A stretch of 64,000 nt of DNA from Escherichia phage EcS1. The stretch's first letter is position 1, and each line of letters opens with the position of its first letter. Location of the stretch: the sequence record NC_055721.1, one strand, 5' to 3'. Positions 32,952-46,234 of this stretch are shown piece after piece. Under the pieces are notes generated by a model. That model was not told where the DNA came from. It saw nothing but the letters and a program-made list of their open reading frames with translations, and made no database searches. Made by a program: the position numbers and the translations under genes.

Positions 32952-33401
32952 TTACATATCTACCAATTTGCCGTTTTTAACTCGCATAACTTTAGCGGCT
33001 AATTTATTAGTTGGATTTTTCTGACGGACAATAGATGCTAAGCTATTAGCTGCTGTTTTAGCTGCGGCATAATCGTCATACCAATCACGACCAGTTTTAA
33101 TACGCTTAGTTCCTTTGTCTACTGTAACAATCCATTGAGATTGATCATTAGGGTCCATTTCTATGCGAATATCACCACCTGATACTAAACCAGATTGGAC
33201 CTTAGTAGGTTTGTTAGGGACAGTACCACCTAATGCTTTCGCCGCCTTTACAGCATCTTCATAACTCAGCCCAGCTTCAATAGTTTCAGCCTTGCGTCCT
33301 TTGCCACGATTAACATTAAAGGTTGTACCCCATCCAGGAACAATTTCAATATCCATTTCATGTTTTGCCGCTTCAGCTATAAATTCTTGATAAGTTTTCA
33401 T
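32952..33401 (-). CDS. internal (capsid-packaged) protein, IPII/IPIII-like
   Basis: 149 aa; N-terminus MKTYQEFIAEA is the T4 capsid targeting sequence with gp21 cleavage context; adjacent to denV as in T4. Confidence 0.6.
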   Translation of the reverse strand: MKTYQEFIAEAAKHEMDIEIVPGWGTTFNVNRGKGRKAETIEAGLSYEDAVKAAKALGGTVPNKPTKVQSGLVSGGDIRIEMDPNDQSQWIVTVDKGTKRIKTGRDWYDDYAAAKTAANSLASIVRQKNPTNKLAAKVMRVKNGKLVDM

Positions 33402-33415
33402 AATATCCTTTGTAG

Positions 33416-33829
33416 TTAGTTAATAGCCTTACCATAATGTTTATACCACAAAGGCTTTTGAGTAATCTTTTCGTCAAGACGTTCCTGAGATAAACGAAGA
33501 GCACGTTGATTAGGAATATAATCATTACACCACTCGACAGGAATATCTGTTATGGGCTTAACAGTAGTATCAGTAATTTTGAAACCACGTTTTAAGCATT
33601 CATTGATGAGCTTAAACTGACGATTATGTAAGAACTTTAACTTGTTATAGAAGAATGTAACATGACCAGTCCCAAGCAAAAAGGTATCAGAGATTTTGAA
33701 ATCAGAAACCTTTTTACCAGCAGCAATATGCTTACGAACAGCACCAAACACACGAGGGAGCTCGCGATACTCCGCCATTAGATGTTGATCAGTTAATTCA
33801 GAAACAGGTGTTAAGTTAATACGTGTCAT
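33416..33829 (-). CDS. denV: endonuclease V, pyrimidine-dimer DNA glycosylase
   Basis: start at MTRINLT; long blocks matching T4 DenV as recalled ([45 protein letters not shown]). Confidence 0.9.
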
Positions 33830-33884
33830 GATGTCCTCCATTAGTTTAGGAAGACATCATACCACAGTACTATCTTGTTGTAAA

Positions 33885-34172
33885 CTACTTCTTAGAGTAA
33901 TCACTCATTAGTTTAACTATGTCACCAAGTTTCTTGTTGAACAGATAATCTACTTCTTTACCTGCTTTGTTAACAATCTGCCATTGGCCATCGCCTTTGT
34001 TACCGAAAGTGTAGTCGCCAACTTTAAATGAGTAGCCGCCTACTTTTTTAACAGGAGTTACTTCAAAGCCAAGTTTTTTAGCTTGGAAAGTTACACGACG
34101 CAGAGTGTCGTCCATTTCGCTTTCAGTTAGTGGTTGGGTATAAGTTTCAAGGTAAGATTCTAGTAAAGTCAT
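33885..34172 (-). CDS. hypothetical protein
   Basis: trimmed ORF between e and denV. Confidence 0.4.
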
Positions 34173-34657
34173 TCGTATGCACCCCAAGTGCCAGTTTTAA
34201 AAGTAGAGATAACACGCTTAGCGCGATTAGGTGTCTGATTATACCATCGGGATTTAGATAAATTAACTGCTGCTTCATCCCAACGTTTTTCTTTAAGCAT
34301 ACGCATAGAATTCGTAAATCCTGCGACGCCTGCAACACCCATTTGGAAGACCATATTAATCAGTGCAGCACGACGAACACCATCCAGAACATCATATACA
34401 GGCTTCAGAACTGAGTTGCCTAAGATGCCTCGAGTTGCCTTTTCAACATCTTTATTAAAGATGCTTTCAGCTTCGGCTTGACTGAGCTGACCGTTACAGT
34501 CGCGTCCAACAAGTTTATTAAGTTCAGTTTTAGCAATATCAAGAGATGGTTCTTTGGTCAAAAGATGACCGATACCAATTGTGTAATACCCTTCGGTATC
34601 TTTATAAATTTTAGAATCGTATCCTTCATCGATACGAAGCATTCCGAAAATATCCAT
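34169..34657 (-). CDS. e: lysozyme (endolysin e)
   Basis: 162 aa; near-identity blocks to T4 lysozyme as recalled ([46 protein letters not shown]). Confidence 0.9.
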
Positions 34658-34695
34658 AGAAACTCCTATACATTAATATAGGAGTATTTATTTAG

Positions 34696-35208
34696 TTACT
34701 TCCAGTTAGCTTCATGGATTTCCTTTCCGTAAAGCTTCTGCATTACATTGTAAAGAGATGGGCCCATTACGTAGTTCCACATACGAGGTTGGATAAAAGC
34801 AAATGCATCTAGTTCCGGGAAACTGACGCCGTCTTCACCAGTGTGTTGAGCTGTACAAACACAACCCTTGAAGTCCTCGACTTCGACAGCAAATGGATAG
34901 ACAAACAAATGAATATCTTTATTGGGCGCGTAGTCGTGTCGTCCTAGGTCCACTAGGGCTCCAGGATTGTACTTCTCGAAACTGGTTTCTTCTGTACATT
35001 CACGGACTGCAGCTTGAAGAACAGTTTCGCCTTCTTCAACATGTCCTTTAGGAATGTCCCAACGATGACCCTTGCCTGCTAGTCCCGAACCCGTAACGCG
35101 TCCCATGAATAAATGGTGTTCTTTTGTGAAGAACAAAATACCTGCTGATAATTCTTTTACTTTAGTCATTAAAGTCGTCCCCGAGCCATGATAGGCTATA
35201 GATTTCAC
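34696..35208 (-). CDS. nudE: Nudix hydrolase
   Basis: 170 aa; Nudix box GHVEEGETVLQAAVRECTEETS; T4 nudE position upstream of e. Confidence 0.75.
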   Translation of the reverse strand: MKSIAYHGSGTTLMTKVKELSAGILFFTKEHHLFMGRVTGSGLAGKGHRWDIPKGHVEEGETVLQAAVRECTEETSFEKYNPGALVDLGRHDYAPNKDIHLFVYPFAVEVEDFKGCVCTAQHTGEDGVSFPELDAFAFIQPRMWNYVMGPSLYNVMQKLYGKEIHEANWK

Positions 35209-35401
35209 GAATCGTTTCTTCTACATCAGATTCTTCATATTCTGAATTTTCACTAACCGCTATAGTCCAATCAGCTATTGGTGAAAAATAGTCTAAATTT
35301 TCAGATAATTTAGAATGGATGGAATCTAATGATTGTGAATCTTCAAAAGAATACAGGTAAGAATCACCAGATTCAGATTTAATATAAACTGCTACAGCCA
35401 T
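35162..35401 (-). CDS. hypothetical acidic protein
   Basis: 79-aa ORF. Confidence 0.35.
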   Translation of the reverse strand: MAVAVYIKSESGDSYLYSFEDSQSLDSIHSKLSENLDYFSPIADWTIAVSENSEYEESDVEETIREIYSLSWLGDDFND

Positions 35402-35706
35402 TAAAAGGCCTCCACAAAGTTATAGAGATTAAAATCTTTTGCATCATACTTACCATAATGAATGGCTTTCATAGTATCGTACATATCATAATACTTTTCA
35501 CGAGCCAGCGTACCAAAGAGATGAATCTTGAGAATGTCCCAATCTTTGCCTAATTCACCACTACTGAAAGAATAAACCTTTTCTACTATTTTAATAATAC
35601 GAAGAGCAACTTCTTGGTCAGTAGGTGAGACCCAACCCCAGTTATGATAAACTGTTCCAGTCACTACACCATCTTTAAAACTTGCTAATCCGGTTGGACA
35701 ACTCAT
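35401..35706 (-). CDS. hypothetical protein
   Basis: 101-aa ORF. Confidence 0.4.
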   Translation of the reverse strand: MSCPTGLASFKDGVVTGTVYHNWGWVSPTDQEVALRIIKIVEKVYSFSSGELGKDWDILKIHLFGTLAREKYYDMYDTMKAIHYGKYDAKDFNLYNFVEAF

Positions 35707-45106: not shown

Positions 45107-45112
45107 ATTGTT

Positions 45113-45187
45113 TGGTACTCTGTAGGAGAATTGAACTCCTCTTCCCAGGTTGAAAACCTGGTGTCCTAACCGATAGACGAACAGAGC
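45113..45187 (-). tRNA. tRNA-Glu (anticodon UUC)
   Basis: 75 nt; D arm TCGTCTATCGGTTAGGACACC, anticodon arm CCAGG-TTTTCAA-CCTGG, CCA. Confidence 0.75.
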
Positions 45188-45195
45188 TAAGAATT

Positions 45196-45284
45196 TGGTG
45201 CACCGAGAAGGACTCGAACCTACGAAGCTCATTACAAGCAGGAGATTTACAGTCTCCACCCTTTGCCACTCGGGTCATCGATGC
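45196..45284 (-). tRNA. tRNA-Tyr (anticodon GUA)
   Basis: about 89 nt class-II; anticodon arm GGAGA-CTGTAAA-TCTCC, long variable arm, T loop TTCGAGT, CCA. Confidence 0.7.
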
Positions 45285-45394
45285 ATTGAAGACGTTATAT
45301 TTTATTTATATCATCGAAATGATATCGTCTTCGGCATGACTTGCTTCATTAGCAAGTCCATGTATTAATAATAACACTTAAAACTTAAAGCATA

Positions 45395-45586
45395 TTACAA
45401 ATCGCCACTTCCAACAACAGTGAATGAAGAATCAACAATTTGGTATTCACCACCACAACTGTAGCCTGATTCATTCTGTTTGGCTTCTACGGTCTTCATA
45501 GCTTCTTCAAGAGAATCGTATTCACCTTCAAGGTCGTTCAGCCCACCACGTGGGTAATAATTGTCCCACAAAAATAATTTATACAT
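45395..45586 (-). CDS. hypothetical protein
   Basis: trimmed ORF. Confidence 0.3.
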   Translation of the reverse strand: MYKLFLWDNYYPRGGLNDLEGEYDSLEEAMKTVEAKQNESGYSCGGEYQIVDSSFTVVGSGDL

Positions 45587-45788
45587 CTTCACGTTTCCAA
45601 GACATATGAATAACAAACAGACCAACAAGTAAAGCTAACATAAAACTACCAATATTTACTAAAGTAGCACCAGCAGCCATACCCATCATAGCGTAGTCCC
45701 ACTTGCCAAGTTCATCTTTAACTTCGTAGTTCTTTTTGAACCAAGTTTTAGCTTTCAAGAACAGTTCATTAACTTTTTGCATTTGCAT
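45579..45788 (-). CDS. small membrane protein
   Basis: trimmed ORF; hydrophobic helix. Confidence 0.35.
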   Translation of the reverse strand: MQMQKVNELFLKAKTWFKKNYEVKDELGKWDYAMMGMAAGATLVNIGSFMLALLVGLFVIHMSWKREDV

Positions 45789-45960
45789 TTGCAATTTTAT
45801 CCATAATGAATGATACAATACCAGATGCAAATGATGCACCTAGCACAATGATTGTTTCTTTAGTATCGATAACTCCAAGACTTCCAGCGAAGATTGCAGT
45901 ACCGACAGCTCCTAATGTTACTACACTTGCAATGTTACGAATCAGTTCACAACGTTTCAT
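45769..45960 (-). CDS. small membrane protein
   Basis: trimmed ORF; glycine-rich hydrophobic helices. Confidence 0.35.
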   Translation of the reverse strand: MKRCELIRNIASVVTLGAVGTAIFAGSLGVIDTKETIIVLGASFASGIVSFIMDKIANANAKS

Positions 45961-46021
45961 TTTACATCTCCATTTAGTTTGTAGGAGTACTATACCATGT
46001 TCAAATGGAGATGTAAACACC

Positions 46022-46234
46022 TTAAGTCATCAGCCATGCTGAATTTTTAGCAAGCCACCTGTCAATATCTGACTGAGGTCCAAAGAAAGAAGCAATACCT
46101 TCAGAGAGTTTGCCTGAAAGCCAACTATGTCCTTTCAAGCTTTCTTTGAACTCTTCAGGAGAGCATGAAACTGACATCGATACTGATGAAGCATACTCCA
46201 TGGCTTCAGTTAAAAATTCTTTGTATGATTTCAT
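46022..46234 (-). CDS. ipI: internal protein I-like (capsid targeting sequence)
   Basis: 70 aa; N-terminus [11 protein letters not shown] (CTS); position immediately before 57B as for T4 ipI. Confidence 0.5.

Follow-up and report, generated by a model that had tools for sequence, protein, structure and literature searches.

In phage T4, a capsid targeting sequence (CTS) of 10 residues, published as MKTYQEFIAE (PMC8442874), suffices to target a protein to the prohead core, after which the tag is removed by gp21 and the cargo is injected (PMC9026906, PMC8442874, PMC3012670). The three T4 internal proteins Ip1, Ip2 and Ip3 (also written IPI, IPII and IPIII) are non-homologous apart from this leader, and each inhibits one variant of the type IV restriction enzyme GmrSD (PMC12373910, PMC9391042, PMC3012670). 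Diverse CTS cargos of T-even phages were described by Repoila et al. 1994 (as cited in PMC3012670, PMC9026906 and PMC12373910), and the general principle, that diverse CTS cargos with an anti-restriction function are swapped at hot spots, has been known since the 1990s and repeatedly reviewed. The present analysis concerns a stretch of 64,000 nucleotides of Escherichia phage EcS1 (NC_055721.1; hereafter the window), a phage classified as Kagamiyamavirus within the Tevenvirinae, whose nearest genomes in the phage collection, which does not contain EcS1 itself, are those of Winklervirus (CHI14, X20, LC53, Virsaitis27, Gravdalen and Vettismorki; ~83% identity over ~55% of the region). Three CTS genes in this window, here termed IP_A, IP_B and IP_C, together with a fourth gene with a variant leader, ORF95, probably encode T4-type internal proteins that would be packaged, cleaved and injected, and that would be likely to act in counter-defence.

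The three CTS genes were the only matches when the window was scanned in all six frames with the leader motif in a strict, a loose and a core form, compared with 0, 0.005 and 0.01 matches per window, respectively, in 200 mononucleotide shuffles. The coordinates given for the three open reading frames (ORFs) by an earlier, sequence-only reading of this DNA proved exact; the strand, however, is minus, and a plus-strand reading of the same coordinates was rejected because it contains stop codons throughout. The N-termini quoted there, MKTYQEFIAEA for IP_A and MLKFKEFISEA for IP_B, were found as given, as was the leader of IP_C. The tag of IP_A is identical to that of T4 IPII and IPIII in 10 of 10 residues and in 27 of 30 nucleotides (in NC_000866 both ipII and ipIII begin MKTYQEFIAEA, and ipI begins MKTFKEFTST); IP_B and IP_C share 6 and 7 of the 10 residues, respectively, with every functional position kept. 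According to the summary of Mullaney & Black 1996 in PMC9026906, targeting depends on an aromatic residue at position 4 and Phe at position 7, and processing on Ile or Leu at position 8 and Glu at position 10. The targeting pair is present in IP_A (Y4/F7), IP_B (F4/F7) and IP_C (Y4/F7), and the protease site (I/L)-x-E at positions 8-10 is followed in each by a small residue (IAE/A, ISE/A and LTE/A, respectively, the slash marking the predicted cut).

Across eight CTS genes, position 4 is encoded by TAC, TAT or TTC, position 7 by TTC or TTT and position 8 by five different Ile/Leu codons, with the class of residue constant; Glu 6 and Glu 10 are invariant, and are GAA every time, and positions 3, 5 and 9 are free to vary. 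This pattern of held and free positions agrees with the experimental map of the tag, and the synonymous variation of codons at held residues points to selection on the leader peptide and not only on the DNA. A CTS-like leader is likewise kept in all aligned homologues of the cargo families, comprising A1 (12 sequences), A2 (5), A3 (3) and the protein P0028 described below.

Beyond the leader the likeness to T4 ceases. The cargos had been described as divergent in the sequence-only reading, and a comparison of mature IP_A, IP_B and IP_C with T4 IPI, IPII and IPIII bore this out, no similarity being found past the leader; the view of the three cargos as orthologues of the T4 proteins was rejected on this ground. 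Nor was homology found between the cargos and the T4 genes of the same slots (e.5-e.8, trna.2/3), and searches of Pfam, NCBIfam and PDB sequences with all cargos returned sub-threshold or low-complexity matches only (PepSY at 0.063; TonB/DEC-1 through a Pro/Ala/Lys linker). The translations of the three CTS genes are 100% identical to EcS1 entries that are labelled 'hypothetical', and in every overlapping record among the matches listed the EcS1 cargo families are 'hypothetical' or unannotated. EcS1 carries four different cargos, three behind a CTS and one behind a variant leader, and the coordinates of their genes and of associated features are collected in Table 1.

Table 1. Internal-protein genes of EcS1 and associated features in the window (a slash marks the predicted cleavage point).
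Feature	Position	Strand	Description
IP_A (KNT65_gp135, 'hypothetical')	32952..33401	-	149 aa; leader MKTYQEFIAE/A
CTS-coding 30 nt of IP_A	33372..33401	-	nucleotide and residue identity to T4 ipII/ipIII
IP_A C-terminal module (residues 69-149)	32955..33197	-	related to phrog_3966
denV (endonuclease V)	33416..33841	-	conserved anchor between the ORF95 and IP_A slots; synteny with T4 and CHI14
ORF95	33885..34172	-	95 aa; variant leader; phrog_8765; T4 ipII/ipIII slot between e and denV
Stem-loop directly after IP_B stop codon, GC-rich	39164..39186	-	-14.6 kcal/mol predicted; tail CCCTTTCGGG
IP_B (KNT65_gp149, 'hypothetical')	39189..39794	-	201 aa; leader MLKFKEFISE/A
Stem-loop upstream of IP_B, GC-rich	39874..39907	-	cassette edge; -26.2 kcal/mol predicted; tail CCCTTTCGGG
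IP_C (KNT65_gp283, 'hypothetical')	46022..46234	-	70 aa; CTS leader, cut site before Ala
CTS-coding 30 nt of IP_C	46205..46234	-	homology to different-cargo relatives resumes here
Gene 57B (Acb1, anti-CBASS)	46231..46686	-	Pfam PF23474, 3.5e-58; directly upstream of IP_C, overlapping

In addition to the leader, two of the three CTS genes resemble the T4 ip genes in position, being located in or beside their loci. The genes of the minus strand follow one another in the order gene 3, gene 1, 57A, 57B, IP_C, small membrane ORFs, 17 tRNA genes and IP_B, followed by a 74-aa ORF, an e.6 homologue, several ORFs, nudE, e (lysozyme), ORF95 and denV, and then by IP_A, a vs.8 homologue, Acb2 (vs.4) and regB. 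IP_C therefore occupies the ipI slot of T4, directly after 57B, and ORF95 lies between e and denV, where T4 carries ipII and ipIII. IP_A is found just after denV, where other T4-like phages have either one CTS gene or two, and IP_B on the stretch from the tRNA cluster to e.6, which corresponds to the site of e.7 and e.8 in T4. In relatives, the post-denV and post-57B slots are either filled with different CTS cargos or left empty, whereas the IP_B cassette varies only by presence and absence. A T4-like metagenome contig (L008) contains two adjacent CTS genes after denV (6001-6603), encoding proteins of 97 aa (MKTYQEFLTET...) and 99 aa (MKTYQEFIAEAKAPKAF...), which shows that the post-denV position is a multi-cassette hot spot for internal proteins in other T4-like phages.

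The boundaries of the cassettes were mapped to within a few bases from blastn blocks against four Winklervirus loci. At the IP_A slot, homology of ~90% reaches position 32953 and restarts at 33413, with exactly one ORF replaced; the slot is empty in CHI14, in Gravdalen it has nothing but a 117-nt ORF, and in LC53 and Virsaitis27 it is occupied by a true IPIII-like CTS protein of 189 aa. Around the ipI slot, the matches to LC53, CHI14 and Virsaitis27 form two blocks, 45589-46024, which ends at the stop codon, and 46205-47700. Position 46205 is the last base of codon 10, and the break falls exactly at codon 10/11, the junction of CTS and cargo; the 30 nucleotides of the CTS lie inside the conserved flank and the cargo (46025-46204) alone is exchanged. 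In these three phages the slot encodes an unrelated CTS cargo of 110 aa, and in Gravdalen the IP_C cargo (90% amino acid identity).

At the DNA level, the IP_B cassette (39150-39908) shares 94.5% identity with that of Serratia phage CHI14, compared with 74-80% for the flanking conserved genes, and the block of high identity covers both stem-loops that adjoin the gene (Table 1). The protein is 96.5% identical to that of Erwinia phage Vettismorki, and the cassette is absent from LC53, Gravdalen and Virsaitis27. The difference in identity between cassette and flanks, together with this patchy presence, indicates recent horizontal transfer between phage genera with different hosts. A third GC-rich stem-loop with the CCCTTTCGGG tail is located at 21591-21613 (minus strand), in an intergenic stretch near 21.6 kb, and the three matches to this motif in the 64 kb compare with 0.28 expected. 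The elements may be shuffling elements of the PeSL (promoter-early stem-loop) kind or terminators. PeSL cassettes are known from the hyperplastic regions of T4-type phages (PMC2839356), and the IP_B cassette resembles them in lying between GC-rich GGG...CCC stem-loops with a common motif and in having been exchanged whole with CHI14 and Vettismorki; it differs in that no clear sigma-70 promoter is present within the IP_B elements and in the low number of motif copies, three in 64 kb.

The cleaved form of IP_B is predicted to have a mass of ~21 kDa and a pI of 9.75, and consists of a helical N-terminal domain, a linker of ~40 residues rich in Pro, Ala and Lys, and a highly conserved C-terminal domain that is also predicted to be helical. 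IP_B belongs to phrog_2280 (E 3.4e-53) and is found in 142 phage records across several genera, in all of which it is 'hypothetical'. Most members of phrog_2280 begin MKTYNEFLNES..VLSEAG, with two LxE sites, and the form of the leader in EcS1 and CHI14 looks like the result of a short deletion that joined the two.

IP_A, with a predicted mature form of ~139 aa, ~15 kDa and pI 9.66, is built from two modules and a short linker containing Pro and Lys. Among 5.8 billion proteins there were just two further full-length homologues (leaders MKTFNEFITEA and MKTFKELLAET), one of which, P0003, is encoded in the post-denV slot of a T4-like contig, and a tblastn search of 50,697 phage records gave no match. 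One more genuine relative, P0028 (E 6.2e-6), emerged when 1.84 billion representatives were searched with a profile; it is a CTS protein of 97 aa that matches phrog_3966 (4.8e-21) and, weakly, a head-scaffolding phrog (E 0.018). P0028 is 41% identical to IP_A residues 69-148 over 82 aa (pairwise E 4e-11), occurs in 190 phage records and takes the same post-denV slot. For the N-terminal module no family match was found. On these sequence comparisons IP_A is a rare composite, in which an internal protein of the phrog_3966 type is combined with an additional N-terminal module. Compared with the 97-aa family itself, which is found in T4-like phages of Enterobacter, Kosakonia and Escherichia, IP_A has in common the C-terminal module, the CTS and the position downstream of denV, and is distinguished by an extra module of ~55 residues and a linker inserted between CTS and shared module.

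Several leads concerning the additional module of IP_A were dropped. A test for internal duplication gave p ~0.02-0.03 in two of the homologues and none in the third, and duplication was set aside as weakly and inconsistently supported. The AlphaFold2 (AF2) model of IP_A is poor (pLDDT 65) and fold matches based upon it are unreliable; a YegP/UPF0339-like or an anti-CRISPR AcrIF5-like fold was rejected, as no significant fold or profile similarity was seen. The repeat proteins P0027, P0029 and P0030 also matched the IP_A profile, with scores judged to be inflated by summed repeats. P0029 (759 aa, from a metagenome library) contains ~15 copies of a unit in which VDADGTTWNVYRGKAPT is followed by three residues, LE, one residue, KL, three residues, K, one residue and LY. 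Its repeat, GTTWNV.RGK, resembles the stretch GWGTTFNVNRGKGRKAETIEAGLSYEDAVKAAKAL of the N-terminal module of IP_A (residues 14-63), with an E-value of 1.4e-4 that is inflated by the repeats.

The smallest of the three, IP_C, would after cleavage be a protein of 60 aa and ~6.6 kDa. It falls in phrog_23867 (E 1.2e-32), which is represented in 27 phage records (among them JS98-type Dhakavirus, Citrobacter phages and Gravdalen) and is often unannotated, and its ATG overlaps the stop codon of 57B/Acb1 (ATGA). The AF2 model is confident (pLDDT 85.8) and shows a CTS helix followed by a beta-alpha-beta-beta-alpha arrangement, for which a Foldseek search of viral models returned the homologues of IP_C and the 'Ip6 putative internal head protein' of VR7 (E 3.4e-3, TM 0.70, 18% identity). 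Against the PDB only generic ferredoxin-like, HMA and secretin-N domains were matched (Z no higher than 6.8), which offered no functional lead.

A fourth gene was missed by the sequence-only reading, whose three CTS genes are all real and whose list was incomplete. ORF95 matches phrog_8765, annotated 'internal virion protein', at 1.7e-44, and its family is found in 41 phage records; its start codon overlaps the stop codon of the lysozyme gene e (ATGA), as that of IP_C does with 57B. In EcS1 and in Winklervirus the leader has 17 residues and is non-canonical (MTLLESYLE...), continuing with SEMDD after the predicted cut; it agrees only loosely with the pattern of an aromatic residue 4 and Phe 7, and offers two candidate sites, LLE/S at residues 3-5 and LTE/S at residues 15-17. 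The homologue in the related T4-like contig L008 (5232-5507) has a canonical start, MKTYNEFIAEQ. The variant leader resembles that of T4 IPI, in which 19 residues, MKTFKEFTSTTTPVSTITE/A, end in the site ITE/A; the 76-residue chain of PDB 2jub, with residue 20 as its first, confirms the point at which IPI is cleaved. On family, position and leader, ORF95 is probably the fourth internal-protein gene of EcS1, and it may carry a head-targeting leader of a second type, with that of IPI as its counterpart. Internal proteins adjoining the e gene of Jiaodavirus phages have been detected in virions (PMC13119998), the phage concerned not being among those with ORF95 homologues.

Taken with the known behaviour of T4, these features suggest a common route for the EcS1 proteins. 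The CTS of ~10 residues would form a short helix that binds the scaffolding core during prohead assembly and so brings the protein into the head, where a gp21-type prohead protease would cut after Glu 10 in (I/L)-x-E/A and the tag would leave. The mature cargo would remain among the packaged DNA and, when the next cell is infected, be injected together with that DNA. There the cargos would most likely serve in counter-defence as a first response, with one particular host nuclease blocked by each and modification-dependent (GmrSD-like) enzymes as the leading candidate targets. ORF95 would belong to the same system, with its longer leader of the T4 IPI kind. We infer packaging, cleavage and injection from the motif, from synteny and from the T4 experiments; the presence in EcS1 of the gp21 protease and the gp22 scaffold is expected from its membership of the Tevenvirinae and from the core-gene status of both (PMC9026906, PMC10132071), genes 21-23 lying beyond the window, whose end falls in the baseplate region. 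The internal-protein genes themselves behave as exchangeable cassettes in fixed slots of a hyperplastic region, and recombination between them presumably draws its homology from the 30 nucleotides of the CTS, from neighbouring conserved genes and, for IP_B, from the flanking stem-loops.

The sequence-only reading had cast the three proteins as CTS-tagged internal proteins with divergent cargos and as candidate injected anti-restriction factors; the sequence-level tests that were run agree with this proposal, which follows the accepted T-even model. The likeness to T4 Ip1, Ip2 and Ip3 extends to the CTS, the (I/L)-x-E/A site, the use of the same or adjacent slots (after 57B; around e and denV), small size and accessory, non-essential character, as well as, for mature IP_A and IP_B, to a basic charge (pI ~9.7, against 9.0-9.65 for mature T4 IPI-IPIII). 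The functional analogy is strengthened by the recent finding that all three T4 proteins are specific GmrSD inhibitors (PMC12373910, 2025), and the EcS1 cargos are reasonable candidates for an anti-restriction role.

Several observations weigh against this interpretation. Mature IP_C is mildly acidic (pI 5.1), compared with the basic T4 proteins; additional (I/L)-x-E sites are present inside IP_B (INE, residues 128-130) and IP_C (LSE, residues 43-45); no exact late promoter TATAAATA stands directly upstream of the CTS genes; and no ORF of at least 300 aa occupies the a-gt (alpha-glucosyltransferase) position of T4, between the presumed gp47 and gp55 homologues. An exact TATAAATA is found at 49622 (minus strand), upstream of IP_C through genes 4, 2, 3, 1, 57A and 57B, and late transcription of IP_C can be envisaged from this predicted promoter. 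Matches at 7 of 8 positions to the late promoter are too common to be informative, and a scan for sigma-70 promoters showed no enrichment (42 found versus 54 expected). A search of the virion proteomics literature on phages with homologues (JS98, fHe-Yen9-01 and T4-like Klebsiella phages) found nothing attributable to these families.

A different use of the same packaging route must be weighed in particular for IP_B, namely that the proteins enter the head by way of the CTS but serve there in a structural or physical capacity (neutralisation of DNA charge, genome organisation or ejection), without inhibiting any defence. The strongly basic character of mature IP_A and IP_B would suit such a role, as would the histone-tail-like Pro/Ala/Lys linker and the conserved helical C-terminal domain of IP_B, and ~1000 internal protein molecules are embedded in the DNA of T4 (PMC3012670). 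IP_B is also the most widely conserved of the three, and its spread over several genera fits housekeeping better than a fast arms race. However, all three T4 proteins are non-essential and each has a specific defence target (PMC12373910), the three phages that lack IP_B are close relatives of the carrier CHI14, which marks the gene as dispensable and mobile, and a cassette of 94.5% identity set in backbones of 74-80% is what recent horizontal spread of an accessory adaptive gene would leave. A purely structural role is accordingly judged distinctly unlikely.

Still less credit is given to the view that the proteins are scaffold-like components of the prohead core which, though carrying a CTS, are degraded to small peptides that leave the head, so that nothing functional is injected. 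Most core proteins of T4 undergo such degradation, and the internal sites of IP_B and IP_C noted above, the long helical C-terminal part predicted for IP_B and the weak head-scaffolding match of P0028 are in keeping with it. On the other hand, IP_A contains no (I/L)-x-E site besides that of the CTS, the LSE of IP_C lies within a compact domain that is modelled with confidence (pLDDT 86-94), the T4 internal proteins have further Glu sites and are nevertheless cut only once (PMC8442874), and the conservation of folded cargo domains argues for a function after cleavage, all of which makes wholesale degradation very improbable. That the shared N-terminus is a mere by-product of a DNA linker (ribosome-binding site, start region and recombination anchor) borne by cytoplasmic early proteins that are never packaged is extremely improbable, for although the swap boundary of the ipI slot at the end of the 30-nt CTS block implies that the block does act as recombination homology, and no canonical late promoter stands directly upstream, the CTS codons vary synonymously with residues 4, 6, 7, 8 and 10 held, the three EcS1 leaders have pairwise only 19-24 of 30 nucleotides in common and keep the same peptide pattern, the same 10 residues package foreign proteins in T4 (PMC9026906, PMC8442874), and the exact TATAAATA at 49622 could provide for late transcription of IP_C.

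The genomic surroundings of the four genes agree with a counter-defence role. Acb1 overlaps IP_C, and a protein of the Acb2/Tad1-hairpin type (2.8e-16) is encoded at 31362-31679 (minus strand), ~1.3 kb beyond IP_A, so that the slots sit among known counter-defence genes. The lineage also appears to differ from T4 in the modification of its DNA. Winklervirus relatives encode a hydroxymethylcytosine (hmC)/arabinose pathway, the annotations of CHI14 including a putative thymidylate synthase, a dCTPase (gp56) and an arabinose 5-phosphate isomerase, and arabinosyl-hmC (ara-hmC), a hypermodified form of hmC DNA, has been proposed for Winklervirus (PMC11780129). Between the presumed gp47 (2001-3026) and gp55 (4236-4769) of EcS1, which were assigned by size and order, the interval 3027-4235 contains only a 117-aa ORF, and the lack of a T4-type a-gt at this place fits a modification that differs from that of T4. 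The Kagamiyamavirus/Winklervirus lineage probably has a cytosine hypermodification different from that of T4.

The tRNA cluster that separates IP_C from IP_B (40120-45284, minus strand) comprises 17 tRNA genes interspersed with small ORFs and a gene of the gp30.3 family (40990-41436; Pfam 1.5e-57). Its tRNA-Cys (40538-40624) is unlisted in the annotations of the Winklervirus relatives looked at. A 176-aa ORF (44530-45060, minus strand) fills the gap from tRNA-Lys (44476-44552) to tRNA-Asp (45031-45106), overlapping both at its ends, whereas in CHI14 these two tRNA genes are almost adjacent. This ORF, for which no Pfam match was found at 1e-3, may be a mobile, homing-endonuclease-like insertion in the cluster.

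Compared with the polymorphic ip cassettes of T-even phages (for example Ip6 of VR7), the EcS1 genes agree in having mutually non-homologous cargos, a conserved leader, fixed loci and a swap boundary between leader and cargo; they differ in that the cargos are unannotated or 'hypothetical', in the rare two-module structure of IP_A and in a DNA modification that is probably not that of T4. A more distant parallel is provided by DarA, DarB and Hdf of P1 and by the ejection proteins of phiKZ-like phages and SPN3US, which are packaged in the head, delivered with the DNA and act before phage expression (PMC9024508, PMC12810830, PMC5694885), often after a propeptide has been removed by the prohead protease, although their sequences, targeting signals and sizes are unrelated to those of the EcS1 proteins. 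What is added here to the known principle is a precise map of the cassettes, a fourth gene with a variant leader and the composite nature of IP_A, as well as the observation that phrog_2280 and phrog_23867, which are fairly widespread, carry a CTS even though they are annotated as hypothetical. No new concept results, and the contribution is the cargo catalogue together with the map of cassettes; the proteins are useful candidates for anti-defence screening, and would not surprise a specialist.

As the GmrSD family is very diverse, each new CTS cargo is a candidate for a specific injected anti-defence protein, and the tag makes such genes easier to recognise in spite of 'hypothetical' or missing annotation. 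Given the probable difference in hypermodification, the internal proteins of EcS1 may be directed at enzymes specific for different modified bases. Genes of this kind influence host range, a point of importance for phage therapy, and their leaders could be used to package foreign proteins. A bolder proposal, which we consider rather unlikely, is that at least one cargo inhibits a defence other than classical GmrSD, and also that the leader of ORF95 may define a second, functionally distinct head-targeting signal. IP_A, very rare and built of two modules, and IP_C, which is small, acidic and coupled to Acb1, would be the best candidates for such an inhibitor, and the target could be a nuclease directed against DNA of the arabinosyl-hmC type or a first-response system that is not a nuclease. 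If true, a non-GmrSD target or a distinct ORF95 signal would extend the internal-protein paradigm beyond conflicts between glucosylated hmC (g-hmC) of the T4 type and GmrSD.

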